The notes below the pieces were generated by a model that was given only the letters and a program-made list of their open reading frames with translations, made no database searches and had not been told where the DNA came from. The translations under genes were made by a program, and so were the position numbers. A stretch of 64,000 nt of DNA from the NCBI GenBank assembly GCA_032372955.1, contig GCA_032372955.1_4725.1; one strand, written 5' to 3'. Positions 15,261 through 58,874 of the stretch are shown piece after piece. Each line of letters begins with the position of its first letter. Positions within the stretch are counted from its first letter, which is position 1. Origin of the DNA: Escherichia coli. Its GTDB lineage: Bacteria; Pseudomonadota; Gammaproteobacteria; Enterobacterales; Enterobacteriaceae.

Positions 15261-15276
15261 TTTTAATTAATCTCTC

Positions 15277-15308
15277 CCTTCCTCCTTCCCTGTTGGGTTG
15301 GAGGAAGG
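15277..15308 (+). terminator. hairpin CCTTCCTCC/GGAGGAAGG, near-copy of the 3310 element, followed by TTTATGTTTG
   Basis: 9-bp perfect stem, 14-nt loop. Confidence 0.5.
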
Positions 15309-15475
15309 TTTATGTTTGTGATTATTCTTCTCTTTTATAATTTCTAATGATAAGATTAAGTACCTGGAGTAAAAGTTTACAGATGTTGTAAATGTATTTG
15401 GAAAGTAAAATTTCCACGACCTCGGCCCCTTCGGGGGACGGGGGAGGAGCGAAGTCCTTTAGAGACGAGCAACAG

Positions 15476-15542
15476 GATAACTCTAAGAAAAAGAAAAACT
15501 AAACGAGCGAAGCGAGTTTATGTTTTTATCCTTAGAGTTATC
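15476..15542 (+). other. long inverted repeat (12-bp perfect arms GATAACTCTAAG / CTTAGAGTTATC) enclosing an A-run/T-run interior; candidate structured RNA or protein-binding site
   Basis: direct reading of the sequence in the non-coding hub. Confidence 0.35.
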
Positions 15543-15995
15543 AAGCTATAAGCGTAGCGTTAGCGTATAACGGTTATGTCGTATACGAATGCAATGAGTA
15601 TAGACGAGATACTCTGATGAACAACGTGAAGAAGAGTATCACAAATGTTTTTTGAGTTATCCGGATTTAACTAGCATGTAACGAAGTGTAATGCACAGAT
15701 GACATGTGTTACCGTTAAGGTAGTAAACACATGTTATCCATTGTTTTGAAGATAAGCTTATTAACTTACTTTTAAATCAATTTAAATATACAAACAACTT
15801 AAACATACCAAGATAAAACAATTGAACCTAAGATAAACAAGATAACTTAGACAATACACTTTTAACGAATACAGATAACATCTTACTTAAATCAAAATAC
15901 CTATCCTCGTTTACCTTCCTTGCTTGCAACACCTCTTCTAAATCCATCCCTTCTTAAGAAACAACAAAACCCTTACTGTAACACAAATCCTTTCA

Positions 15996-16015
15996 CGACT
16001 ATATTACCTAAGTGA
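15996..16015 (+). promoter_or_regulatory. phage-specific promoter-like element CGACTATATTACCTAAGTGA (copy 1 of 3)
   Basis: 23 of 25 nt identical to the copy at 28497..28520; lies about 85 nt upstream of the first early-type gene. Confidence 0.45.
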
Positions 16016-16097
16016 TGCGTACGTACGATGTTCGTATTGCGTCAAATAGAACTCAATACGTTGTTTAATTAACGTGAAAAACAGAGGAACTTTTTAA

Positions 16098-16880
16098 ATG
16101 AACGATGAAATCATTTTTGATACCATGTTTACTGGAGATGAATACCTGGCGTTACCGAGCGATGTTCAAAACGAATGCGTGAAGGTAGCATGCTACAGCG
16201 GCGGTCAGGCTGGGATGCGTGTACGTTGCGTTGACGGGACGAACGGGAAAGTTGTTTGGCGTGGTGCTCACACGTACCCTTACCTGCTTACCGGCAACAA
16301 GAATTGGTACGCTCATCGCAGCCAGCATCCTGCACGGATGAGCGCGAGCGGATTCGTGGTACGTGGTGCGTTGGATGAACGGGTGGAACGCATCGAGATC
16401 ACCGATCGCGCGTTCATCGATCAGCTTGCACAGGTTGCTTACGATGAGGGACGTGCAACAGGGCGATACGGTTGGTTGAAGGTGAACAGCGATACGCAAT
16501 TACAGGTAGGATTCCATCACGCGCTTCCTGGGTGGGCGAACCATACCGTTGGAACGTATTACACCAAAAAGCTTACCATGGTGAAACCTTACATGGCGGA
16601 TGCGAGCTTGGAGGCAACGGATCAGATGCATCAATTGCTTCGCATGTATTATCCACGGGTGGTGCATCCACTTGGGTTCGCTTGGGTCAGCGAAGTGCGC
16701 TACAACCCACGCAAGAAACGCGTTGAAGCGAAGGTGCTTAACGAACGTTGGTTACCGGTTGTGCAACCAGGGCTTGACGATGAATCCATCATGATGCGGG
16801 TAAGCCGAAGCCGGTTCGTACAATGGGATGCTACCATGCTACAACGCCCACAACACGTTACAGGAGAAACGTTCGCATGA
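16098..16880 (+). CDS. hypothetical early-type protein
   Basis: 260-aa ORF; GAGGAA RBS. Confidence 0.5.
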   Translation: MNDEIIFDTMFTGDEYLALPSDVQNECVKVACYSGGQAGMRVRCVDGTNGKVVWRGAHTYPYLLTGNKNWYAHRSQHPARMSASGFVVRGALDERVERIEITDRAFIDQLAQVAYDEGRATGRYGWLKVNSDTQLQVGFHHALPGWANHTVGTYYTKKLTMVKPYMADASLEATDQMHQLLRMYYPRVVHPLGFAWVSEVRYNPRKKRVEAKVLNERWLPVVQPGLDDESIMMRVSRSRFVQWDATMLQRPQHVTGETFA

Positions 16881-17176
16881 TACGCGCAACAGGATACGAA
16901 AACAAAGGCAAGAACAGCGTGCAGCGTTACGTTGCCGACGAGGAAGGGAAAGCAGAATACCTGGATTGGTTCAACCGTTACAGCGCAAGCAAGGTACGTG
17001 ATCCTAGCATCCTGAGGTTACAGAGCAGTTTCCAATGGCAGGCTTCCGAACAACGCTGGTACATCACGTTGGAAATCGGAACGGTACGGGAAGACCAGCT
17101 TCCTGCATACTTAAAAGAACAACGGGAGCAGATCAACACATTACTCGCACAACACAAAACGGAACCTAAACCTTAA
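16877..17176 (+). CDS. hypothetical protein
   Basis: ATGA start/stop overlap with previous gene; the ORF-track start at 16823 is probably an over-extension. Confidence 0.45.
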   Translation: MIRATGYENKGKNSVQRYVADEEGKAEYLDWFNRYSASKVRDPSILRLQSSFQWQASEQRWYITLEIGTVREDQLPAYLKEQREQINTLLAQHKTEPKP

Positions 17177-17216
17177 TCCAACACCAACAAGCGAAAAGGA
17201 AAGTACAACAGAAATC

Positions 17217-17492
17217 ATGTTGATGAAACCGACAGCAAAGAACAAGGTTTATAAAGCAATCTACGCGTCAGACACAGTCAGCCTGACGAAGATCATCAAA
17301 TACAAACTTGAGAAGGTGCTACGTGTTGAACCGAGCATAGGCTTAGTCCGTTATCGCCTGATTACCGAGAACGGTGAAGGGTATTACGCACCGTCGTCTC
17401 GAAGCGATAACGCCGTTGTGTTAACCCGGGATGTGGTTGAAGCAATCAACAACGGAACGAAGGCGTTCTACGCGCACAGAAAAGCCGTATAA
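17217..17492 (+). CDS. hypothetical protein
   Basis: 91-aa ORF. Confidence 0.45.
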   Translation: MLMKPTAKNKVYKAIYASDTVSLTKIIKYKLEKVLRVEPSIGLVRYRLITENGEGYYAPSSRSDNAVVLTRDVVEAINNGTKAFYAHRKAV

Positions 17493-17569
17493 CGCAATAA
17501 ACGAATCCAAAGAAGGGAAACTATACCTTAACTTAAAACGACGCTTAGAGAGCGTTACAGGAGCTTAGA

Positions 17570-17977
17570 ATGCAACATGATCAAACGAACACCACCGCAA
17601 CGTCAATAGCCCTTGCCGATGCCGTCCAGGCGTGGAACGAGAACCCAGCCTGTCGAGCAAAGATGGAATTGGTGTACGAAGGATCAACCCGTGTCAGGAC
17701 GGCTGATGATGTTCTGGTCGTACGAGGTGAATTCTTCGCCTTAGGTGTCACGGACCGTGGTCCGTTAGATGCGCTTTGGATCGAGTTACAAACCTGCCCG
17801 CAGAGACCACGCTACGTGACCCGTGACCATCGTCCTGAGAACGCGTTGGTCGGAACCGGTTCCGTGGATATTTTCATCTGGCAGGATACCCTCGACAACA
17901 TGAACAAGATGATCGACGTTGAGAACATCGTTGCAAATAAGTTAACCCAACTTAAAGAACGTCTGATGCCGCTATAA
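17570..17977 (+). CDS. hypothetical protein
   Basis: 135-aa ORF; AGGAG RBS. Confidence 0.5.
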   Translation: MQHDQTNTTATSIALADAVQAWNENPACRAKMELVYEGSTRVRTADDVLVVRGEFFALGVTDRGPLDALWIELQTCPQRPRYVTRDHRPENALVGTGSVDIFIWQDTLDNMNKMIDVENIVANKLTQLKERLMPL

Positions 17978-17990
17978 CGCATCAACATCA

Positions 17991-18053
17991 CCCGCCTGTA
18001 CCTCATCGTGTTCGGGCGGGGCAATAAGAAACCAAGGGGACATCGCCGTCCCC
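17991..18053 (+). terminator. two tandem GC-rich hairpins (CCCGCC..GGCGGG and GGGGAC..GTCCCC)
   Basis: inverted repeats directly after the stop at 17977. Confidence 0.35.
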
Positions 18054-18089
18054 GTTACTATCATCAACCACTATCAAGAGGAACCTACC

Positions 18090-18533
18090 ATGGAAATTAA
18101 ATTCTGTAAATCGATCGCGATTGTACCTGAACAACCTGCGGATGATCTCGAAAAGCTCGATCATCCCACACTGCAACATGCGCTGGAACGTTTAGCCTCT
18201 TTTGCGCCGTTAGAGAATCATCTTCACTGCGTTAATCTTGAAGCATCCGACTTCGACGTGAAGCTTGGGTTCGTGTTTTCACAAACGGGGAAGGATGTGT
18301 TAGAAAACATATTCTGGTCTGCTGAGCATAAGGCGAGAAATGTGATGACGAAGTTAGTTTATAACGTTAGCCTTAGTGAAGACGGCACCTATTGGACGTC
18401 AGAGGCTTGCTGGACGATTTCTGCGATTTCACGAATGGACAAAATACACTATTTGCATCGTGTTGCTGATAGCATTGTACACCAACTGGATCGTTTTGAT
18501 ACCACCCGCTTATCGAATGGAACACAGTGTTAA
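18090..18533 (+). CDS. hypothetical protein
   Basis: 147-aa ORF; AGAGGAA RBS. Confidence 0.5.
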   Translation: MEIKFCKSIAIVPEQPADDLEKLDHPTLQHALERLASFAPLENHLHCVNLEASDFDVKLGFVFSQTGKDVLENIFWSAEHKARNVMTKLVYNVSLSEDGTYWTSEACWTISAISRMDKIHYLHRVADSIVHQLDRFDTTRLSNGTQC

Positions 18534-18548
18534 TACGAGGAATCGAAC

Positions 18549-18977
18549 ATGCAAATTAAATGGCCTGAATCAGCAGTAACTGCAGCGCGCGTTGGTCTTT
18601 ATCATTCGCTGGTTGCTCAGCATACCAGCTTACATCGCACCCTATCACTTTTACGCGAAGACGAAAAACTACGTGAACACATTCAGCCGATCTCAGCATC
18701 AATGAATGCGAACACGTTGTCTATGCGTTGCGTTCGATTGACTTTTGTGTGTACCACGTTAGGAAAGACGTTGCTTGAGGCTGCCTATCTTCGTTGTTGC
18801 GAAAGCACGACGTTCACCGACGATATGGTGTTGTCGATCGAGATGTATTGTCAGACAAATGGAATACGTCAACCGCAGATAGTTTGGAAAATATACGGAT
18901 TGACACCAAAAGTAATCAGCACGAAGTTAGATGCGGTTGCTAATAGCCTTAATGAAATTTTGAAAGAAGGAATTTGA
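18549..18977 (+). CDS. hypothetical protein
   Basis: 142-aa ORF; GAGGAA RBS. Confidence 0.5.
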   Translation: MQIKWPESAVTAARVGLYHSLVAQHTSLHRTLSLLREDEKLREHIQPISASMNANTLSMRCVRLTFVCTTLGKTLLEAAYLRCCESTTFTDDMVLSIEMYCQTNGIRQPQIVWKIYGLTPKVISTKLDAVANSLNEILKEGI

Positions 18978-18978
18978 T

Positions 18979-19341
18979 ATGCAACAACGTATCGGTTTAT
19001 CGCTCGCCATTGACCGACTGATCAAAGTCTCATCGTTACGAAGTGAATTTGTTGGCGTCCGTGAAGAAGCGGCGAATAACCGCTGTATTTTAACGTTTAC
19101 GTGTACCAAGAAAGGCGTGACGGTTATCCGTGATGTTTGGGACGCTGTGAACAAACGTGAACCCCGCTGCTCGGTATCTGTCGTTGATTACAAAAACCTG
19201 GATAATACTTACACTATCCGTTTAGAATGGGAGCATCGCCTCAGGACATTCGTTGAAGTTCGGTCGAAGCTGTTAGCTGAATTGTTGAACGAAGCCTGTT
19301 TACGTGACGAGAACGCTACAGAACTCTTCAGAACGCTTTAA
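18979..19341 (+). CDS. hypothetical protein
   Basis: 120-aa ORF; start 2 nt after previous stop. Confidence 0.45.
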   Translation: MQQRIGLSLAIDRLIKVSSLRSEFVGVREEAANNRCILTFTCTKKGVTVIRDVWDAVNKREPRCSVSVVDYKNLDNTYTIRLEWEHRLRTFVEVRSKLLAELLNEACLRDENATELFRTL

Positions 19342-19399
19342 TTCAATCTTAGATAAGGAAACCCCTTAGAAATTAAAACAAACCGTTATACGTCGTTCT

Positions 19400-19837
19400 G
19401 TGACGTTTAAGCTATACATTGAACTCATGGCAATCGAGGAAAGAAAAATGTTAAATTCAACTTTTACCCACTATCTCCACACCTATGCAAAATTATGCTG
19501 CGTTGACATGGAAGAGCTCGCGAACGATAATACTGTTCGCGATTGTGAGATGCTTCCTAAGCGACAAGGTTTTCTACCCGGTTCGCGGTCAGCGGCGTTC
19601 TTCTTAATCGCTTACTTCATCGTTAGTCATAGTGCGGCGCTGTTGAGCCAAACCAAGAAACAGCGAAAGGATTACGCTACCGCAATCACTCAAGTTTATT
19701 TCGATCGTCTTCACGGACGTGCAGTGAGTATCGATACCGCGTTAACGACCGCGTTTCGTCATCGAGGCGCAACCGCGGTACAGCTACCTGCTTTGGTTAA
19801 GATCGGAAAAGAAATCATCCAGAATGCAACGCGTTAA
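19400..19837 (+). CDS. hypothetical protein (track start is GTG; an in-frame ATG at 19427 is an alternative start)
   Basis: 145-aa ORF. Confidence 0.4.
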   Translation: MTFKLYIELMAIEERKMLNSTFTHYLHTYAKLCCVDMEELANDNTVRDCEMLPKRQGFLPGSRSAAFFLIAYFIVSHSAALLSQTKKQRKDYATAITQVYFDRLHGRAVSIDTALTTAFRHRGATAVQLPALVKIGKEIIQNATR

Positions 19838-28409: not shown

Positions 28410-28496
28410 AGATGATGATTCCGAAGATGATTGGTTTAGGCTAAAAGCCTATAAAATTAGTTGCGGATGCCGTATTTATCTTAATCCAACATTTTT

Positions 28497-28520
28497 CACG
28501 GCTATATTACTTAAGTGAAG
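28497..28520 (+). promoter_or_regulatory. phage-specific promoter-like element CACGGCTATATTACTTAAGTGAAG (copy 2 of 3)
   Basis: near-identical to 15991..16015; about 20 nt upstream of ATG 28542. Confidence 0.45.
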
Positions 28521-28541: not shown

Positions 28542-29198
28542 ATGGATAAGACTTTCAGTCTCACCGATGTGGAACAACAATGGTTTCCTATCGAAGTGAT
28601 TGAAAGATACTTTCGCTTGGCTAGGAAACTCGACATACCGCAACAGCTACACCGTTTGAGTGCTCGTGGATGGGTAATGCTGAAAGCCTTACGTGTAGGC
28701 GCAAAACGTTTTTACGCTTTCCTGCACGAGAAACTTAACTGCACATGTAAAACCGAATACCGCCATCCACGATGGTTTAAATCAATTTCATCTCAAAAAT
28801 CGAAGGAGTCTATCATGACCAATAAAGATCAGAAAATGAACAACCAGCCGTTTGAACCATCTGAAACGACTGTTGACCAAGAATCCATTAAGCAATCAAC
28901 TTCCAAACAAGAGGAAACCACCATGAACGTACGTTATGATAACCTTGACCGCGATACCTTAGCCCGCTTGGCTGAATCCGAAATTCATCGGAATGAAGCA
29001 GAGGCTGAATACATGCGTCGTATGGCGCTTGATCAAAAGCCTGACCGTAAATGGCAGTATCGTGCTGGGGTTGCGTTAACGGCGACGAGCGCAGCAGCAA
29101 TGGGCGCTATCGCTCTCTTCTACCTGAAACATACGGGTCTGTTTGACGGTTTGTTAGGGGGAAGCAAACCTGATACAAATGAAGAAGCTGCAAGCTAA
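28542..29198 (+). CDS. hypothetical protein with C-terminal transmembrane segment; possibly two genes (internal ATG at 28815 has a strong AAGGAG RBS)
   Basis: 218-aa ORF; C-terminal hydrophobic stretch GVALTATSAAAMGAIALFYL. Confidence 0.45.
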   Translation: MDKTFSLTDVEQQWFPIEVIERYFRLARKLDIPQQLHRLSARGWVMLKALRVGAKRFYAFLHEKLNCTCKTEYRHPRWFKSISSQKSKESIMTNKDQKMNNQPFEPSETTVDQESIKQSTSKQEETTMNVRYDNLDRDTLARLAESEIHRNEAEAEYMRRMALDQKPDRKWQYRAGVALTATSAAAMGAIALFYLKHTGLFDGLLGGSKPDTNEEAAS

Positions 29199-29205
29199 TT
29201 GATCC

Positions 29206-29250
29206 AAGGTCCTCTGATATCAGAGGACCTTGCTTTATATCGTTTTTTCT
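29206..29250 (+). terminator. intrinsic terminator: perfect palindrome GGTCCTCTGATATCAGAGGACC plus T-rich tract
   Basis: direct reading. Confidence 0.6.
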
Positions 29251-30976: not shown

Positions 30977-31026
30977 TCACGGCTCTCCTTCATTGGAGAG
31001 CCTGTGACTATCGTTTTTTTTTTTTT
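30977..31026 (+). terminator. intrinsic terminator (12-bp stem plus T13)
   Basis: TCACGGCTCTCC ... GGAGAGCCTGTGA followed by 13 T. Confidence 0.65.
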
Positions 31027-31040
31027 GCTTGACGGCATAA

Positions 31041-31072
31041 CCCTCCTCCAACCCAACAGGGAAGGAGGAGGG
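31041..31072 (-). terminator. hairpin CCCTCCTCC/GGAGGAGGG, exact reverse complement of the 3310..3341 element
   Basis: 32-nt identity to the element at 3310 in inverted orientation. Confidence 0.5.
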
Positions 31073-41588: not shown

Positions 41589-41617
41589 TTTACATTCTCC
41601 GTATTGAAAAAAATAAC

Positions 41618-41637
41618 AGGACTATATTACCTTCATG
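41618..41637 (+). promoter_or_regulatory. phage-specific promoter-like element GGACTATATTACCTTCATGA (copy 3 of 3), immediately followed by a 9-6-9 palindrome
   Basis: matches the core of the copies at 15996 and 28497. Confidence 0.4.
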
Positions 41638-41721
41638 ATGACAGTCATGAAGGCGACGTATAACGTTACCTTCTTGTGATGGCTTCATTGATGCCTGCAA
41701 GAATGATACATAGGTGATGCC

Positions 41722-42237
41722 ATGTTACATCGCTTTTTCTTGAGGCGTGCGTTCCAACGTTATAAAAGGAAGACGTTTCAAGATGATAGGCAACGGTTAA
41801 ACGAACTCTTGTTGCTTTACAAAACAACGTCCTGGGTTCACAACATCTACGATATACGCGTTGCACGTAAAACGTATTTACCGTTGTGGTATATGGACGC
41901 TGAGTCGTTGATGCTTGACCTTCGCCGTTGGCATCAAGCGTTCGATAACGAAGGCAACATAAACATAATCGCATTAGAGGAGAGAACATATGCAATACTA
42001 GCACCACAAATCACATTCAATCGTTGGCTTGCTGATGCCGATGGTCGTGTTATCCAGTTCGACGTTCTCATGCGTGACGTTATCGAGTATGGACGCATAC
42101 TTGCGACGTGGTTAGACGCGCTGGCGGAACGTGACGATTTGGATGCGGCTTATGGATTACGCAAAACAAGGAAACTAGCGAGAGACTGTTGCGAACTCCT
42201 AACCTTCGCACTCAGTCAGTACACTGGTGTATTATGA
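41722..42237 (+). CDS. hypothetical protein
   Basis: 171-aa ORF. Confidence 0.45.
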   Translation: MLHRFFLRRAFQRYKRKTFQDDRQRLNELLLLYKTTSWVHNIYDIRVARKTYLPLWYMDAESLMLDLRRWHQAFDNEGNINIIALEERTYAILAPQITFNRWLADADGRVIQFDVLMRDVIEYGRILATWLDALAERDDLDAAYGLRKTRKLARDCCELLTFALSQYTGVL

Positions 42238-42746
42238 CAAATAAATATAATGAAGTCTCTTTTCGCGCGCGCATTAATCCGCTTAAGCGTCGTGACGAAA
42301 GCGATGATGAAAATCCTCAAAGCAATCGAGGACGAGCGACTAACTACAATCACGGTAACAATTTCTGGACGCCTACGGGTAGACAGGATTTCCTTACGGA
42401 GTTCCTGTTGCAGATTTATACGGAGAGAGGGATCGGCGCAAATCAGCTCAATTCGTATATTACCCGACACATGCGTGATGTGAAGAAACGACATCCTGAT
42501 AAAACGAATAAAGACATTTCCAGTATTCGGGGAAACGTCATTAAGGAGTTGAATCGGGGATCGATGCCGTTCCGTAACTTCATGAATAAACTACGCTTAA
42601 TCCGTGCAAGGGAAGTCACGTTTACGATTTCCATCACAGATAGCGTAGGTTATACAACCACGCATACGAAACGGTATTTTGACGCAACTATTCCTGTTGA
42701 CGATCCAGATGCTGAATCATTAGGTTCAGAAAACGAAGAAGTTTAA
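42234..42746 (+). CDS. hypothetical protein
   Basis: ATGA overlap with upstream gene; the ORF-track start at 42189 is probably an over-extension. Confidence 0.45.
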   Translation: MTNKYNEVSFRARINPLKRRDESDDENPQSNRGRATNYNHGNNFWTPTGRQDFLTEFLLQIYTERGIGANQLNSYITRHMRDVKKRHPDKTNKDISSIRGNVIKELNRGSMPFRNFMNKLRLIRAREVTFTISITDSVGYTTTHTKRYFDATIPVDDPDAESLGSENEEV

Positions 42747-42828
42747 CATCGATGTTGATCTTAGCCTACCCACCATTGTGTGGGTAGGCTTTATGCCGTA
42801 TTTCTTTTTTCTTTTTCAGGAGGACGTG

Positions 42829-43896
42829 ATGAGTCTTTACGACAAACTGCCGAGTATAGATACGTCCAAGATCAAAACCATCACCAGCGATTTTTCGACA
42901 GGGCGTGATACGCTCCTTAAAGCGGTTAGCGGTACTGCTGTTTCAGCGGCGGATGCGTTAACCAGTTTTCGTAGCAGTATTACGAACAGTATCAATAGTA
43001 CATTATCGGCGTTAACAGGAAACCTGATTTCCATAAGCGATCTTAATTCTTTCATCGATATCAGCGGAGGCAAAATCTCCCTGAATGAAAACGCGTTGAT
43101 GAATAAGATCAAAGATGTTACTGGCCTGAATATATCGTCAACCGATAACATCCTATCGCAAGTAAAAGACCAGATTTACAGCACCATTAACCAGCAATCC
43201 AATGGTGCGTTAGGGAAGCTTATCGATAAAGATGGAAATGTTAAGCTTCTCGATAGTCTGATGTCTGGCGATGAGTATTATAAACTGTCGACGATTGTTG
43301 ATCGGTATCTCGAGGATCAAGGGAAAACGCGAACCGAATTCAGCTACAACGACTATAAGACGAACCGGACGGTTGTCACATCGTTGATTCGTCAAGCCGC
43401 ATTAGCGGGCAACTATATCGACGTACGTAGTCTGTATGACTCTGGGTCAGCGGAGGATAAAGTGGCGATGGCAACCACTTTAGCGGAATCGTTAAGCAGC
43501 GTTGGCCTTAACGGCGATTTCCGTACAGCTGCCGTTATCACCGAACTCATTACGGCTGAACGTGCCCGTAGCGTTGTCCCTGAACTTATTACGTTACTAT
43601 TTCGTAACTACCGTATCCCATCGTACCTTACCCTTAAAGAATACGACGCTGAAGCCTCGCGTTTAATTGATTTTGCCGACGCGTTTAAACCCGGATGGGG
43701 TAAAACGAACTATCACGGTAAGGATGCAGAACTCCTCACGATGTGGATGGAAACATCCAGTGGGTTTTATTCCCTTTTCTCCCGCAGTAGGAAATACGCA
43801 TCTCTTGCTGTGATGGGTAAGAATTATACAACTACCATCACGATGGCAGGCTTGAAGAAACTTTATCCTGATTTACCGACGGTGACGTTAGGTTAA
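42829..43896 (+). CDS. hypothetical protein
   Basis: CAGGAGGA RBS before ATG 42829. Confidence 0.5.
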   Translation: MSLYDKLPSIDTSKIKTITSDFSTGRDTLLKAVSGTAVSAADALTSFRSSITNSINSTLSALTGNLISISDLNSFIDISGGKISLNENALMNKIKDVTGLNISSTDNILSQVKDQIYSTINQQSNGALGKLIDKDGNVKLLDSLMSGDEYYKLSTIVDRYLEDQGKTRTEFSYNDYKTNRTVVTSLIRQAALAGNYIDVRSLYDSGSAEDKVAMATTLAESLSSVGLNGDFRTAAVITELITAERARSVVPELITLLFRNYRIPSYLTLKEYDAEASRLIDFADAFKPGWGKTNYHGKDAELLTMWMETSSGFYSLFSRSRKYASLAVMGKNYTTTITMAGLKKLYPDLPTVTLG

Positions 43897-49100: not shown

Positions 49101-52100
49101 TGCACCGCCGCTTAACACCGCCCCAAGACCGCCTAGAATTTTTCCAAGCGGACTCGCCATGAGTCGTTTACCTAATGCGGTATCGCCGAGCATATCGAAA
49201 AGGCTTCCGAGTAATCCCCGTTTCTTCTCCTTTTCTTCTCCTTTATTGGAATCTTTGCCGGTGTCGTCCTTACCGTTTTCCTTGGCTGCACGCTTACGTT
49301 TCAGGTCTTCCAACGATCCTTCTCGAACACCATCGCCATTCCAATCGCGGTAATCCTTATCGCCACCCGGCATACGCTGGTCAAGAAGCTGGTAAATAGC
49401 ATCGAGGCGATCTACCATGCTCGACGTTGTTCCCACCAGTAATGCGTCAGGTGATTGGAAATTTAATCCCATCCGTCGTAGACCGTTAACGGTTTTACCT
49501 GGAAGGGCTTTAAGGATGTCCTTTGTCTTACGTAGCAGCGTTAACGGTAACGTAAAAGCTTTTACGCCGAAGTTGATGAGCTTTTCTTTTAAACGACGAA
49601 TCGCTTTACCGTATTTATCGACAAGTCCTTTCTGCATGTCGGCAAGCGTAAGTACGACGTTACCTTGTGCATCAACAACATCACCATCGATGTCTTCAAG
49701 ATTTTTGATGACTTGTCCATCAGAGCGACGGAAATACCCGCCAGCTGCTAACACCATGGACAACAGACGAGGCGTTGATTCTCCCTTGACGTAAACGTCG
49801 GGTGTTTTGTCAAGCTGTTTGTAGATCTCGACCGCACCGCGTTTTAACATCCGTGGCAGACTTAATACCGTCGTGATTCCATTAAGACCTTCACGTGCCC
49901 ACGCCTTAAGTCCTGAATTCTCAAAGGCACGACCAGCGCGAGTGACCAACCCTTTCTCGATATCCTCGTTGCTGATTACGATGTTTCCATCCGCATCAAC
50001 GAGTGGGCCTTTGATATCCTTCATCCGTTTTACGGCTTTTCCTGTCGCTTCGTCGAAGTATAACCCCTGACGAAGTTTGGCAGCCAGTATGCGTGGTTGG
50101 GATTCCCCTTTAACGTAAATGTCAAACGGAACCTGATCAACCTTGGATAATGCGCCGAACACAAAACGGTTGAAATTGATAATGCGTCGGCCGGAATTTA
50201 CCAAACTACCCAACGTGCGTTCTGCACCCCAGCGTGCGCCTTTAACACCCAAACGTGCGGTATTTTTAATTCCTTTCCAGAGGAGATTACGGCCACCTTT
50301 AAAGAGGTTGCGTGCACCGAGTTTTTGTTTGGCACGATCGATAAATGAAATGGGTGCTGTACCTTCAGGTACATCTTCACCATCCAGTGAAACGTTATTA
50401 GACCAGTCTTTCTCAGAAATGGCTTTCAGCAACGCAAGCATTTCAGTACGTTGTTCGGATGCTTCAGATAACGCTTCGAGATAAAGCTCTTGCCACGCTC
50501 GATTCTGTTCTTCAAGCGATGTGGTGATAACACCCGTGTCGTTCCACCATTTATCATAGCCGATGTTTTCATCAACGGTTACTGTTCCAACAGCCTTGCG
50601 ATCGATGTTCGGCAGACCCGCATTTTGGACGTCATCAACTGATGGTTTTGCGTCACGATAACCTAGCGCCAGCGCTCTTGTTTCCTGAGCGGTTAATCGC
50701 GTATTAACATCACTACGTTCAGCGTACTCCGGTCGGTCGATGTATCGATCGATTTCAGAGAAATACCGATCGTGATTAACCGAGTAGCTTCCGTCGCTAT
50801 TTCTCGTTACGATACCGATACGTTCCAGATATTGGACGTCACCAGTACGTTTCAGTAGGTTAAGGTTACGCTGGATATCCGGTTGTAACGATTTCAGATT
50901 TCCGTAGCGAAGATCCGCTCGGTTACGTTCCGTGTAATATTGCCCGCGGTTTCCAATGACCTGATGACGTTCGCCCTTATCGTTGACATCATCACGAATA
51001 CCGTAACGGTCACGAAAGTACGTGGAAAGTTCCTTAATAGCGTCGCGGTCAATACTACGATCGAAGTTGCTTTCATCCGTAAAACGAGCCGGGTCGAATG
51101 CGATGTTTGCGTCGCTATCTCGTGCCAGCTGCTTAGCCAGTGCCTTCCTGGCTTTTTCCGATAATTGTTTATCGGGATCGACGACCGAGATAACCTCATT
51201 GAAACGGCTGGCGTAATAACCAAATGAACGTTTGTTAAACAGGGTGTCGTTGACGCTTTGTTCGCGCGTGCGCTGAGCCACGAATTGCCCGCTGATGCCG
51301 TCATAGACCTCGTAGTCGGGATCGCTGTTTCCCGTGCGGATGCCTTCACTGCTTTTCAGAATGCGAGCAAGAAAACCAGGAATAACTTCATTGATGCTGC
51401 GGTAAGTTAAACCGTCGAAAGACGTCTGCTCCGCCAATGTTTCAGCGGTGTCGTTCATCACACGGAAGTTACGTCCGCTGTCCATGTTGAACGCCCAACG
51501 CCCTGCGCCGCGTAACAATTGCTTGTAAAACGGATCGTTAAGATTGAATTCGTTTTTACGAATATCTTCCTGGAGCAGTTTACCGAGATTACGCGTCGTG
51601 TAAGCGGCAGCCTCACCACCTTGATCCACGGCTTTTAACGCGCTAGCGAATTTAGCGTTGGGGTGACGTTTTGCTAAATCGCGTAACGCCATCCTGCCTT
51701 TATTAGCCATCCATGGTGCGACAGTTGAGCCAATGAACTGACCCAACATCTTTCCTTGCATTTCCTTAATATCGCCTTCTGACCCCATCCCATCCATCAT
51801 GGACATCGAGTCACGTGCTTCGTTTAAACCGTATAACGCATCGTTTGCGCCAGACACGACGCCTTTTAAAGCACCTAATGCGTTGGTGGCAAGGTTCTTC
51901 TTAACATCGGCAAAGAAACGGTTCTCGAAAGAACTCATCGCATCTAACGCGTTACCAAAGAAACGTTGGTACGCGCTACGGCGGAATTCTTCCGACATTT
52001 TTGCTTTAGCTGCATCAGGTAAAGCCGTATTCTTCTGGATGTTTTGTAATAAACCGATATAGACTTCGGCTAACTTTTTATGCTGATCAAAACTTGCACG

Positions 52101-52808: not shown

Positions 52809-53053
52809 GTATACCTCCAGTTCGATACGTTCCCATGTTACGTTGGAACGTGATGCACGAAGTTTACCTTCGGCATTGATAATGTTGAAGCGTAACTTCA
52901 CACATCGCCCGCTTGATTTTATCAAGCAGGTACGTAACCTAATAACTTCCTCGCCTCAAGCAAGGAAGCGATGGGTGACGCCATCACCCATTACGTCTCT
53001 CGTGTGTTCAGATGATACCGCCGCAGCCGGTGGTGGTAAAGAGGAGTGTCTCC

Positions 53054-54520
53054 ATGGCTAAAGTCAGAGAGCCGTTTAATATTAGCATTTTGCGCCTCGA
53101 TAAACAGCAGTTACGTTTTCTCCCCAAGATCACGAGCATGAGCATCCGTGACCCAAGCACCGGTAATTTCCACGATGATGGTTTCTATTCTTACACCATC
53201 TTTGGTAGTGCGGGTAGTGAAGATCGAGACCGTCGATTTGCGGTGATCGAATGCAAGGTTGAAATCCTACACCCCGTCATTTACGACCGCCTCATTCGAC
53301 TAAAACACCTCTATGGCGATATCATGTCGGGGAAGGCGTACGCTCGGTGGGATCCTGAACAACGCGACTTCGTTGCGTCTGATGCGTTAACAGGACAAAC
53401 AGGATACGGGTTCTTTGCACAACACGTCGCGGATATCAAGTTCGTTTCAACGGGTTCAGCTCAACGAGAGCTACGAATTAAAGTTGTCGAAGAGAACATG
53501 TTCAAAGCGATGACCCGTCACTTACTGGTATTGCCTGCGGGCTTACGCGAAATAGAAGTAAAAGAAGGCGGGTATGAAAGCGAGCAAGAAATCACGGAGT
53601 TGTATCGTCGTTTCCTTGCAATTTCTAACACCGTCCCTGATGGATTAAAAGATTATTCTGATCCCGTTTACGACGGTCAACGTTGGAGCTTACAGAGAAC
53701 ATTTAACGATATCTACGCTTTGTTGTTGGATATGTTCCAAGGTAAGAAAGGGATCTTCCAAGGTAAGTTCGGTTCACGTCGCGTTTGGAACTCAACCCGT
53801 AACGTTATTTCGGCAATTAACCCCACAACAGAGGTACTAGGGTCGCCCAACCAGCCTTCCTGTACCGCAGTTCAGTTAGGGTTATACCAGATGAGCAAAG
53901 CCGCCCTACCCGTGACGCAACATGCGTTACGTACGGGGATTTTGCAGGAAATATTTGTCCGTGATGTTACAGAAGTTGAACTTATCGATACCGAAACGAT
54001 GGAACGTGAACGTGTCACGCTTGATCCAGACACCATCGATGACTTTACAACATGGGACGGAATAGAACGTTTATTGAACACCTTAAGCGATCCTGGTGTA
54101 CGTAACGAACCCATCATGGTTAATGGGCGTTATCTTTGTCTCGTCTATGTGAACAATGATTCGTTTCGGTTATTCCGTGGTATGAGTGAATTACCCCCGG
54201 AGATGCTGAATAAGCCTGGTGCGGATGTTCACCCCATCACGTACACCGAGCTTATCTATATTGCCGGATATAAGTACTGGAATAACCTGGCTGCGATGGT
54301 AACACGTTATCCGGTATCGGGTATGCAATCCGTTATCCCGTTAACCTGTTACGCGCGTACAACCGTTGCAGCAAAACCGAAAACCGAACTGGATAGTAAC
54401 TGGGAACCAATAACGGATGAACGATTTATCGCATGGGAATACCCCGACTGGTTACCTAATGCCTCGTTCGTAGAAACTACTATTGTTCCTGCGCCATACC
54501 TCGCCGGTTTAGGCGGTGAT
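53054..54520 (+). CDS. RNA polymerase beta-prime-like subunit, N-terminal module, exon 1 (predicted 3' boundary)
   Basis: AAGAGGAG RBS; beta-prime-like segments ELYRRFL and GKKGIFQGKFGSRRVWNSTRNVI; boundary placed after U54520 by homology and frame. Confidence 0.6.
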
Positions 54521-55002
54521 AAGTCCTTGAAAAATAAAGACTTTTTTCAATGGAAGTTGTCCGGTATTCCCGAAAGGGAGTGCTTGAAAAACCTACGAAT
54601 TGCTGGGAACCCCTAAAGCTCAACGACCCATGAGGTGCCGAAAGGCAGAAACAACAGTTGAGATGCACTACCTCCCACGGAGGCTTAGGCTGAAAGAAAA
54701 GCCGCGTAAGCGGTGCTAAGGTGCGCGATAATGGGCAATCAGCAGCCTGGTTGTTGCGTAGTAATACGGCATTCTTGAAAACAAGAATGTGAAACAACGC
54801 AGGTTCAACGACTAAGGGATTTACCACCCTGTAGAGGACAAGCGTCTTCGAAGTGTAGGTTACCGTAACAGGTGTTGCTGAAGTATTCTTCAGCGAAGCT
54901 GACGGTTTGATATAGTCTCCTCTTGCATGAAAGTGCAAGCAGCCTGTGATGTACGTATCCATGCAGGCGGTCTCAGCGTAGCGACCTGAGGCGAAGACAA
55001 GG
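54521..55002 (+). ncRNA. group I intron (ORF-less), intron 1, boundaries predicted
   Basis: Q-like AATCAGCAGC 54737-54746, R GTTCAACGACTAAGGG 54793-54808, S GATATAGTCT 54909-54918, P8-like hairpin CTTGCA/TGCAAG; flanked by two halves of one conserved protein motif. Confidence 0.7.
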
Positions 55003-55185: not shown

Positions 55186-58100
55186 ATGGCAAAACTTAAA
55201 TACCTTGATTACTACCGACAGTTTGGTGTCAGACGCTACCAAGAGCTACTATCACCAAGATTACGTTTAGTGCAGCTACTGCAGCTGCCGCGTTATGCTG
55301 TCTATCATTACACCGCAACGGATCCTTCATTGATAGGTCCTCCAGAAAACGAATACATGCTGAGCAAAGAAAGTGCTCAACTATGGATTTCGTTTGCTGA
55401 TGATCTCGCAACCAAACAGGGTGCACCCCGACGTGATCAACGATTCCAACTCCCACGAGCGAAATTGGATTATCGTGCATCACATCGTCGTTTTCGTTTG
55501 GTTACCGATCTAAGCGCGGTGGAGAAAAACATCAACGCTCAGATCGTTGCTAACTACGCGCATCTTAACCACATGTACATTTATCGTCCAACGCTCACCC
55601 GTTGGTATGATGAATGGTTCAACGTACGTAAAACAATTTGGTCGAAAGCCAACGAAATCGCACAGCAAAGCGATCGTCAACACTTTTTGTTGTTCCGTAT
55701 ACCGTCAAAATTGCCGAAGATTTCGTTGATGCGTACCACGCAACAGGCACCGACCCGTAACAACCTCATGAATTTCGCCACGCCGGAGGAGCTGTCGTTC
55801 TTTGACTTCTTCCGCTGGTTGGGCGTCGATCGTGAGAACAGCACGATGGCTTCGTTAGACAGGGCCATGCTGGATAAGCTTAACGTCGTATTTACAGACG
55901 GTGTGTACTTCTTTACGCTGAATCTCGGCCTGCTGGAGGAATGGCGTACCGGACTTGTGAAGGAAGGGGAAGAACTCGATAAAACGACGCTTGAAACCTT
56001 CCAACGACGTTGGATGATGGCGGTAACACGTCTGTGGTCGCAGAGTGCGAATGAAGAAGAACAGAAACAAGAAGAGGAACAGGTTCTTCGTCAAGAGCGA
56101 GATATTCTTGCAGCCAGCCCGGATGCGGAGTACGATGATCGTGACGTCGTGCTTCCTAACGGTGAGGATCTGGCTACCGTTCTCGATCCCGATGAGTTAG
56201 AAGCGGAGTTGGTCGGTGGGTCGGATGAAGACGATGATGCTGATGCATGGAACGCCATCGTAGAACGCTCGTTCGAAGATGTCCGTGAAGTACCTGGGGT
56301 AGAAGTACAACCGGATTTCCAACCTGATGAAGATCAGGACATTACCGACGATCTCTTCGAAGTCGTTACCGACGATACCGAAGAAGAAAAGGTTGATGTC
56401 TTTGACGCGGCAACGTTACCAAAAACGCATGGCGAATATATTCAGTCGCTATCGGATGCGGTGTTGGTACGCGCGAGTGATCTGGCGGATGCGGGTCAGT
56501 TAAGCGGTGTCCAGTATAAAGCAGCGATGCGTAACGCCGACGCCATTCACGAAATCGAAGCACCCGACGGTTCTGGATTAACACTTGCTGAGTATGTCGA
56601 AGTTAAACCAAAAGCCGCAAAATTAGCTCCCGCAAAGGTTATGCCGGAAGCGGATGTTATCGTCGACAAGAGCTTATGTAAATCGACGCTCGCGGTGTGG
56701 GATAAACATTACGTCGAACACGTAATGCAAAAGGACATCGCAGCTGCCGTTGTTGCGGTACAGCAGGCGGGTTACCCTGTTACGGGATATAAAGTTGAAG
56801 ATGTTGTTGACGTGATGGGGGACTATCAAGTCATCACGATTAAACTGGCCCCTGTAGGCGGTGTCCCGACCACGTTCCCGGTGATGTTGCCGAAGGTTCG
56901 TAAGGACGGCATTTATGTCGTTAACGGTATCAAGTACCGGATGCGTAAACAACGCGTCGATAAACCTATTAGAAAGGTATCGTCATCTGAAGTCGCATTG
57001 AGTACCGCCTACGGTAAGGTGTTTGTTAAACGTTCAGAGCGCGTCGTTAATAACGCCGGTCGTTGGTTAACACGCCAACTTACGGCGATGTATTACGATA
57101 AGTCCTCGCCCTTAACAACGTTAAAACGCGGTAACGTCTTTGATCCGGCTGTCAAAGTTCCGTATTACTTCGCTGTGCTTGCACGCAACTATACCCAAAT
57201 CCAATTTGCTGATTGGGATATACGTCTCGATATAAAAACATTGCCGGAGTTCATCGGGGAAGATCGGTTCAACGAACAGTTAGCCGAAGGACTCCTGACG
57301 TTCGCGCGTAACACGTTGGGTGAATTCTTAGCAATCGATAAACGCAATCAGCTCTATATCTGTCAGTCGGGACAAACACCAACACCTGTAGGGACGTTCC
57401 CTGATTTCTTCGGCATTAATGCGGCTAAGATGCCGATCGAAGCCGCCGATCTTGAATTCATGGGTGTACGTATTCCGGTCGGTGTTGTTCTAAGTTATCT
57501 GGGTGGGCTTACCCCGTTATTAGAACATCTTAAAGCGAACTATCGTACGGTACCTCGCGGCTCTCGTATGGGGTTAGCACCCGATGAATTCGCAGTGAGC
57601 TTTGACGACGAAAGTCTGATCTTCAGTAAAGACGATCGCATGACGACGTTGTTGCTGGGTGGGTTTAACGAATACCGTAACTACATTGGTTACGCTCGCG
57701 GTGCTTTCGACAATCGAGATATCTATTTTAACGTTGTTGATGGTGCTGGACTTAAGGTTCGCCATTTGCGCGAACTTGAACTCATGGAGCGTCTTTTCAT
57801 CGATCCGGTAAGCCGTACGTTGTTGCAGAACATGGGAGAACCTACCGATTTCGCCATGTTGTTACTGCGTGCTGTTGAACTGCTTCTGGATGATTGGGCA
57901 CCTAACACGAACGATGTGAACTACCAACGTTTTAAAACGTACGATAAGTTCGCTGAATTGGTGTATAAGGACCTGGTTGGCGCTATTCGTCAGAATGAGA
58001 ACAGCAGTCAAGGGAACCGCCAGAAAATCTCAATCAGTCCGGTAAGCGTCTGGAACCAAATTCTCGACGATAGCGCTTCCATCGTGATCGATGAAACCAA

Positions 58101-58335
58101 CCCGATGCTGGATATCAAGCAGGGTGAAGAAGCAACGATGACCGGTATCGGGGGTCGTTCAAAGACATCGCTTCGACGCGCACGTGATCGCGAATACGAC
58201 AAGTCGGACATTGGTGTTGTATCCGAAGGTACGAAGGATAGTGGGGACGTAGGTATTTCTGCTTACCTCGCACCTAACGCAAACATTGTGTCTGTATACG
58301 GTGAAACGAAACCTTACGACGAGAAAACGGATGGT
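55186..58335 (+). CDS. RNA polymerase beta-like subunit, N-terminal module, exon 1 (3' boundary approximate)
   Basis: ATG 3 nt after the beta-prime stop; C-terminal part DETNPM...TGIGGRS...RRARDRE...SEGTKDSGDVGISAYLAPNANIVSVYGETKPYDEKTDG parallels E. coli beta DQNNPL...LGPGGLTRERAGFEVRDVH...[36 protein letters not shown]. Confidence 0.55.
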
Positions 58336-58874
58336 AGCTCGTCAATAATGAGTACATCAGCACTTGCAGTACCTGCTGCTGATAGAGATGATTAACGCTT
58401 TTAATAGCAGGGTCCGTCTATGTGGCGACATGTAGATGAGATTCACTGAATTGCGAAGACATCCGTCGCTGTTATCGACCAAAACGGATTCTGAAAAGAA
58501 AGACGGTACGGTATAAAAACAGATAATAGCTTAAGGACAATCCGCAGCCAAGTACCTAAGGATCGCTGTGAAGCGTTCTAAGGTAAAGGTTCAACGACTA
58601 AGGGATTCATCCCCCTGTACCCCTCGAGTGAGGCATTCTCCTTGGATAAGAGAATGGTGCTGGATGCGCTGGGAAGAAGTGAACTCTCGTTGAGGTGCTG
58701 AAGAAGCACCGTTTGAAACGAGATGTGATATAGTCTGCTCTTGCGTGAGAGCGCAAGCGGGAGGTGGTGCGCCTATCATCGCCTCCGGGATAAGACTAAC
58801 GACCTTATCTGAACAATCTAATCTCAGTCTTATTTCGGTAACGGTATGTTAATACTGAATAAGAACTAAATTCG
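58336..58874 (+). ncRNA. group I intron (ORF-less), intron 2, boundaries approximate
   Basis: P-like AATTGCGAAG 58449-58458, Q AATCCGCAGC 58539-58548, R GTTCAACGACTAAGGG 58589-58604, S GATATAGTCT 58727-58736; homologous to intron 1 with a compensatory change in the P8-like stem. Confidence 0.7.

Follow-up and report, generated by a model that had tools for sequence, protein, structure and literature searches.

The early promoters of the jumbo phage phiKZ, 28–32 in number, have been mapped by primer extension, 5'RACE, dRNA-seq and ONT-cappable-seq (PMC8244752, PMC10914365) and carry an extended -10 box together with a T-rich motif upstream of -19 (PMC8244752). The layout of these promoters, conserved at -10, -20 and -30, has been described for phiKZ as well as 201phi2-1 (PMC8244752, PMC11512511), and in phiKZ and phiR1-37 transcription begins 6 nt past the AT-rich element (PMC5312081), a spacing that we adopted for the start-site predictions in this study. 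The early promoter of phage AR9 was reported as TATATTAT-(6N)-G+1, also given as AAATATATATTAT-(6N)-G+1, early transcription in AR9 is chloramphenicol-resistant, and infection by phiKZ is rifampicin-insensitive (PMC5312081). For 201phi2-1, OBP, EL and Klebsiella phage N1M2, early promoters were predicted bioinformatically (PMC7058600 Table 2), and six of the 201phi2-1 copies have been confirmed by ONT-cappable-seq (PMC11512511). As of 2017, no virion RNA polymerase (vRNAP) had yet been purified (PMC5312081); reviews attribute the early promoters to this enzyme and consider the motif findable by bioinformatic means in every jumbo phage that encodes an RNA polymerase (PMC7598289). In the wording of these reviews, the motifs "must" define vRNAP promoters. 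Binding of the early element by a purified vRNAP in vitro is not known for any phage.

The window, by which we mean the whole 64,000-nt stretch of DNA analysed here, is collinear with Escherichia phage vB_EcoM_Goslar (MK327938, 237 kb) at 94–97% identity, and two more relatives in IMG/VR are 96.6% and 95.7% identical to it. Goslar belongs to the Chimalliviridae and is a jumbo phage that forms a nucleus (PMC9891218). Both arbitrary ends of the linear Goslar record are crossed by the window, and ~50 nt of it (31014–31065) align to each of the two ends of MK327938, in keeping with a circularly permuted genome whose record was opened at an arbitrary point; circular permutation has been reported for Goslar (PMC6563267). 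Three copies of a conserved element in the window are very probably early promoters of this Goslar-like chimallivirus, read by its own vRNAP. They represent a well-known kind of element, first mapped in phiKZ, and no new kind. A first-pass annotation of the DNA had pointed to TATATTAC as a core reported for the early promoters that the virion polymerase reads in phiKZ-type phages, and the literature agrees with this (PMC7058600 Table 2; PMC8244752; PMC7598289; PMC5312081). The copies are located as follows, with scores referring to a 46-nt weight matrix:

15974–16015, + strand: candidate early promoter 1 (class A), 47.7 bits, core TATATTAC at 16000–16007.
28477–28518, + strand: candidate early promoter 2 (class A), 52.5 bits, TTAATCCAACATTTTTCACGG, core TATATTAC at 28503–28510.
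41597–41638, + strand: candidate early promoter 3 (class B, upstream block of the A-tract type), 45.2 bits, TATTGAAAAAAATAACAGGAC, core TATATTAC at 41623–41630.

The first-pass annotation had described these as a 25-nt element; the repeat itself is real, while its length amounts to ~42 nt instead. Copy 1, TTTCACGACTATATTACCTAAGTGA, sits exactly at the given 15991–16015, whereas copy 2 had to be moved from 28495–28520 to 28493–28518, and the string given for copy 3 at 41615–41637 is present with its true position at 41616–41638. Rechecking reproduced the 23/25 identical positions between copies 1 and 2 as well as the annotated starts of the downstream + strand ORFs at 16098, 28542 and 41722. 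All three copies are intergenic, and 25–85 nt separate the predicted start from the + strand gene downstream. In promoter 1, a -30 block GTAACACAAATCC and a -20 block TTTCACGA precede the core, which is followed by CTAAGT and then G; taking this G (16014) as the predicted start gives an 84-nt 5'UTR up to the ATG at 16098. Promoter 2 lies within a divergent intergenic region of 132 nt and reads TTAAGT then G after the core, so that the predicted start at 28517 leaves a 25-nt 5'UTR up to the ATG at 28542. Promoter 3, likewise located between divergent genes, continues with CTTCAT then G, with the predicted start at 41637 and an 85-nt 5'UTR up to the ATG at 41722.

Promoter 1 is found at the end of an 837-nt gap. 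This AT-rich non-coding stretch (15261–16097, ~40% G+C) has a terminator-like hairpin at its start (15277–15308) and scattered short AAGATAA-type repeats; a search of 15261–16097 returned no Rfam family and no tRNA.

The 9-mer CTATATTAC occurs three times in the window, always on the + strand, against 0.35 expected occurrences, and a count of three was reached in 0 of 100 dinucleotide-preserving shuffles. Apart from the three copies, the 46-nt matrix gives a score above 0 bits at one other window position and above 5 bits at none. The "degenerate relatives" proposed before 17570, 19427 and 33705 did not hold up, as tens to hundreds of random positions in the window score as high as their best matrix values (-15.4, -26.4 and -11.0 bits); with scores at chance level, these candidates were rejected as members. 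Apart from the three copies, hits in mismatch-tolerant searches (1–3 mismatches) with CTATATTAC, TATATTAYNNNNGTG and TTTCANNNNTATATTA stayed at chance level. A fourth TATATTAC at 42456–42463 (+), kept in Goslar, is situated inside the ORF 42189–42746 and has neither a flanking block nor a G at the start position, from which it follows that the 8-mer TATATTAC alone does not define the element.

Aligning the copies gave a consensus order of a -30 block, TTTCAcG, one or two variable bases, TA(T/C)ATTAC, C/T-T, three variable bases and T-G-A. The core TAYATTAC would span approximately -14 to -7 and is preceded by a T-rich -20 block (TTTCAcGg), with TTTCA placed 4 nt upstream of the core and a second block 13–20 nt upstream; it is followed by five variable bases, an invariant T and an invariant G. 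Counted from the end of the core, this G is the seventh base in 3/3 copies of the window, in 12/12 copies of the Goslar genome (see below) and in most phiKZ sites of full architecture, and is predicted to be the +1 position (16014, 28517 and 41637 in the window).

The -30 block comes in two types. The first, AATCCAACA-like or TTAATCCAACA-like, is present in window copies 1 and 2, and a CCAACA/CAAACA-type block of this kind precedes arrays of small early genes, including those behind these two copies. The second is the A-tract TATTGAAAAAAA of window copy 3, which is also found at the chimallin promoters of Goslar and phiKZ. Both types grade into a third phiKZ variant. It is conceivable, if rather doubtful, that the early promoters of this phage family form at least two conserved sub-classes set by the -30 block. 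If so, the sub-classes would mark two tiers of early expression kept since the Pseudomonas and enterobacterial chimalliviruses diverged, and these tiers could differ in strength, timing or the upstream contacts of the virion polymerase.

A genome-wide motif search, which had been proposed as a check on the element, was carried out on the full Goslar genome, assembled from six fetched pieces, for which the 46-nt weight matrix was built. It returned 12 strong sites of 45–57 bits, while the best score in 20 Markov-shuffled 237-kb genomes was 6.6 bits. Their cores lie at 2567, 15067, 43266, 49732, 86705, 113797, 142800, 160791, 166069, 172978, 201944 and 226695 on the minus strand of the Goslar record, each with its predicted start 14 nt further downstream. 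All 12 are co-oriented with the next gene, and with the invariant G taken as +1 the predicted 5'UTRs of the family measure 25–205 nt. The core reads TATATTAC or, in 4 of the 12 strong copies, TACATTAC, the latter being also the core of the Goslar orthologue of window copy 1. Although the genome is ~92% coding, 11 of the 12 strong cores are intergenic according to the GenBank annotation, which was used for this purpose as greedy ORF calls over-extend N-termini. The twelfth core (49732, minus strand) falls inside Goslar_00047 (49584–49772), a hypothetical ORF of 62 codons; its start codon would lie upstream of the predicted transcription start, and Goslar_00047 is probably not a gene.

The genes behind two Goslar copies are informative. 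One element lies directly 5' of the gene for chimallin, gp189 (E 8e-18 versus PHIKZ054; PMC9891218), with an RNA polymerase beta-prime-like gene next in line, and another directly 5' of Goslar_00175, the homologue of the phiKZ non-virion RNA polymerase (nvRNAP) subunit gp68 (E 1e-32). Two further minus-strand cores, at 151634 and 187639, gave borderline scores of 16.1 and 12.8 bits; they have CCTACATWACCT cores and are intergenic and co-oriented, and one of the borderline sites is located directly upstream of a homologue of the phiKZ nvRNAP subunit gp74. These sites may be weak or diverged early promoters. Since Goslar has 12–14 copies compared with 28–32 in phiKZ, additional early promoters of another form may exist. 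Our literature search found neither a paper describing Goslar promoters nor a transcriptome or 5'-end data set for this phage, and the GenBank record annotates terminators only; the specific set of promoters therefore appears to be new, though their kind is well known.

Among the close relatives, 7/126 columns of the 42-nt blocks were variable across three to four strains and no indels were observed, a comparison of low power given the ~95% identity of these genomes (94–97%). Across four related genomes, promoter 2 shows 1/42 variable columns and promoter 3 shows 0/42. In the orthologues of promoter 1 (Goslar and IMG/VR contig 3300045988_173921) differences are confined to positions at which the paralogues vary too; the six changes affect core position 3, the base preceding CTA, the spacer and a single site close to where the block begins on its 5' side. 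Upstream of promoter 1, the intergenic DNA has accumulated many indels between the window, Goslar and an IMG/VR relative, while the promoter block has stayed intact.

Downstream of the three copies, the following transcription units are predicted:

16098–19837, + strand: predicted early transcription unit 1, made up of eight small ORFs in the same orientation that are orthologous to Goslar_00021 to Goslar_00014.
28542–29232, + strand: predicted early transcription unit 2, one ORF (28542–29198, orthologue of Goslar_00004).
41722–42746, + strand: predicted early transcription unit 3, two small ORFs, orthologues of Goslar_00236 and Goslar_00235.

The Goslar record annotates a terminator behind the last gene of unit 1, and the ORF of unit 2 is followed by a 12-bp G+C-rich hairpin (29205–29232). 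Neither Pfam nor PHROGs gave a function for the genes that immediately follow the three promoters, and the four ORFs tested from unit 1 fall into no Pfam or PHROG family. Small ORFs of this kind, to which Pfam and PHROGs assign no function, are the usual early-gene profile of jumbo phages. One gene counts against the early-promoter reading: the third co-oriented gene after promoter 3 (ORF 42778–43896, +, the Goslar_00234 orthologue; no Pfam family) encodes a virion protein, which would be an atypical early product. This ORF has a match (E 3.5e-222) in PDB 11lx, a solved structure that appears to be the Goslar virion, where the 355-residue chain in question bears the name "inner baseplate protein gp202".

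Regarding the nomenclature of this protein, a truncated copy in PDB 36za is named "major capsid protein gp41", and the two names are inconsistent. The gp numbers of the 2026 Goslar structure preprint also differ from the MK327938 locus tags, with chimallin called "gp246" there and gp189 earlier. An assignment of ORF 42778–43896 as PhuZ, suggested by its locus-tag number, was rejected because BLASTP against phiKZ PhuZ was negative (E 0.84); the PhuZ of Goslar is gp201 (PMC9891218).

The window itself also encodes two subunits of the putative reader of the promoters:

53012–54616, + strand: phiKZ gp180-like vRNAP subunit, 38% identity, E 4e-105.
55186–58395, continuing to 60014, + strand: phiKZ gp178-like vRNAP subunit, 29% identity, E 1e-144.

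Both phiKZ gp180 and gp178 are annotated as RNA polymerase subunits and as head structural proteins, and the order of the two genes, next to a giant tail-associated lysin gene, is that of phiKZ gp178–181. Five vRNAP subunits have been detected in Goslar virions by mass spectrometry (bioRxiv 10.64898/2026.04.21.720040). These vRNAP genes, the element before chimallin and the gp68 homologue, and the phiKZ-like architecture were counted in favour of vRNAP early promoters.

The two polymerase genes of the window are also interrupted by group I introns (Rfam RF00028; + strand) at 54535–54939 (64.1 bits) and 58391–58757 (52.8 bits). With the second intron, the gp178-like ORF breaks at ...AADRDD / KRLVFIGIQHNRMI; Goslar lacks this intron and has a continuous gene there. 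At the site of the first intron, Goslar is ~1.5 kb longer, a surplus that includes an HNH/NUMOD endonuclease gene that is missing from the window. The frame after the first intron reads ...RFDGDTVSVNV..., which indicates that this intron adjoins a DFDGD-like catalytic motif. Given these differences between the window and Goslar, intron and homing-endonuclease content varies between phages that are ~95% identical.

Taken together, and by analogy with phiKZ and its relatives, we propose a scheme in which a multisubunit vRNAP, injected along with the phage DNA, would read the ~42-nt promoters and thus transcribe, immediately after infection, the blocks of small early genes in the window. Elsewhere in the genome, the same promoters would drive expression of chimallin and of subunits of the second, non-virion RNA polymerase, which would then take over middle and late transcription.

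Three other functions, and a fourth without a promoter role, have to be weighed against this scheme. The elements could be middle-class promoters of the nvRNAP, or be read by both phage polymerases, for which a precedent exists in phiKZ gene 054 with its early and middle starts (PMC8244752) and which would suit the virion component encoded downstream of copy 3. We consider this very unlikely, as the published middle and late elements look different, namely a weak AT-rich TACT at approximately -22 to -24 and a TATG at the start (PMC7598289, PMC8244752). On inspection, the aligned copies have no TATG at the predicted start and their -22 region is taken up by the TTTCA block, while the window element fits the early consensus across ~40 nt.

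In our estimate, it is likewise very unlikely that the copies are host E. coli sigma-70 promoters used at the very start of infection with TATATT serving as the -10 hexamer. TATATT does agree with TATAAT at 5/6 positions, and copy 1 is picked up by a loose consensus scan (GTAACA, 16-nt spacer, TATATT; 9/12), but the same scan for -35 and -10 hexamers 16–18 nt apart misses copies 2 and 3; by direct reading, class B copies offer a single good -35-like hexamer, TTGAAA, whose distance of 13 nt to TATATT is too short. The strongest conservation is moreover seen where sigma-70 needs none, i.e. in the final AC of the core, in TTTCA 4 nt upstream and in the T-G 5–6 nt downstream. The same element serves phiKZ, whose infection is insensitive to rifampicin (PMC5312081), and chimallivirus DNA is reportedly enclosed in an early vesicle (bioRxiv 10.64898/2026.04.21.720040).

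A role of the block mainly as a binding site for another phage protein, such as an early-gene repressor or a packaging or replication factor, seems highly improbable. Strict co-orientation with genes and the fixed distance to the invariant G indicate an asymmetric promoter rather than a symmetric operator, and transcription starts have been mapped at the element in three related phages (PMC5312081, PMC8244752). Direct reading does reveal a small dyad in class A, TTCAC-N15-GTGAA, which is missing in the class B copies and the phiKZ sites, and a 9-bp inverted repeat, CCTTCATGA-N6-TCATGAAGG, comes after copy 3 and overlaps the predicted start. Finally, the notion of a duplicated intergenic relic, a structured RNA or a terminator, with no promoter role, can practically be dismissed: a recent duplication could also yield the 23/25 identity of copies 1 and 2, but similarity breaks off abruptly at the block boundaries, the blocks show no more secondary structure than shuffled controls (z 0.04 to 0.31) and match no Rfam family, and the same block recurs in phages whose proteins are only 25–38% identical.

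The inverted repeat at promoter 3 deserves a description of its own. It reads CCTTCATGA-TGACAG-TCATGAAGG (41631–41654), begins directly after the core and covers the predicted start; Goslar and one of the IMG/VR relatives retain its arms and differ in the spacer, and the other relative has one change in an arm. The 5'UTR (41637–41724) folds somewhat better than shuffles (z -2.15). Possible roles of the repeat are those of an operator or of a structure that stabilises the 5' end.

Reading the elements as vRNAP early promoters would provide an early-transcription map for Goslar, the E. coli model chimallivirus, and its relatives, comprising 12–14 promoters with predicted starts, three of which lie in the window. 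The map names candidate immediate-early genes, which are likely to encode factors of host takeover and of vesicle and nucleus establishment, and it suggests that, in phages with only 25–38% identical proteins, the virion polymerase has kept its promoter specificity almost down to the base. For engineering Goslar in E. coli, the elements could furthermore be employed as promoters that are specific to the phage and independent of the host.

The element was further compared with those of other RNA polymerase-encoding phages. AR9 shares with the window a TATATTA core, a 6-nt spacer and a G start, yet it has a uracil-containing genome, a Gram-positive host and a longer AT-rich element that lacks the TTTCA block. 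The consensus of N1M2 and OBP (TTTCARRYAKATATTATYWAAGTGWA) and that of 201phi2-1 (...TTTRARR.BTATATTACDWHDGTG) align to window copy 1 (TTTCACGACTATATTACCTAAGTGA) gap-free, and the published phiKZ string (TATATTAC) likewise aligns to the window element (PMC7058600 Table 2); in N1M2 and OBP the core ends in T rather than C, and the -30 blocks are different. Upstream of chimallin, at a distance of 56–123 nt, TATATTAC-N5-T-G is present in Proteus phage 10, Erwinia phage RAY and phage KpHz_2, and one-base variants of the chimallin-upstream element occur in RP12 and PhiPA3. As the proteins of the compared phages are about 22–38% identical to those of Goslar, the promoter is at least as well conserved as the proteins.

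For the comparison with phiKZ, 200 kb of its genome were examined. Approximately 20 + strand TATATTAC sites of phiKZ display the full layout of a -30 block, TTTaAAcag/TTTGAGatt, the core, five bases and T-G. Differences concern the C allowed at core position 3 in Goslar-type copies, TTTCACGG where phiKZ has TTTAAACAG, and the number of copies, which is ~12–14 per genome in Goslar with its E. coli host and ~30 in phiKZ with its Pseudomonas host; start sites have been mapped experimentally in phiKZ, whereas the Goslar-type copies are known from sequence. In phiKZ as in the window and Goslar, an identical 8-nt core is accompanied by a T-rich block directly upstream and by T-G 5–6 nt after the core, and phiKZ shares with Goslar the two flavours of the -30 block (CAAACA/CCAACA-type and A-tract type) and the co-orientation of the copies with genes. 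Both phages place the element before chimallin and before the gp68-type nvRNAP subunit, and their chimallin promoters are nearly superimposable (phiKZ, aatgaaaaaaatttgagattTATATTACtaaattG; Goslar, attgaaaaaaatttcagggtTATATTACctaggtG), with the G located 66 nt from the ATG in both.
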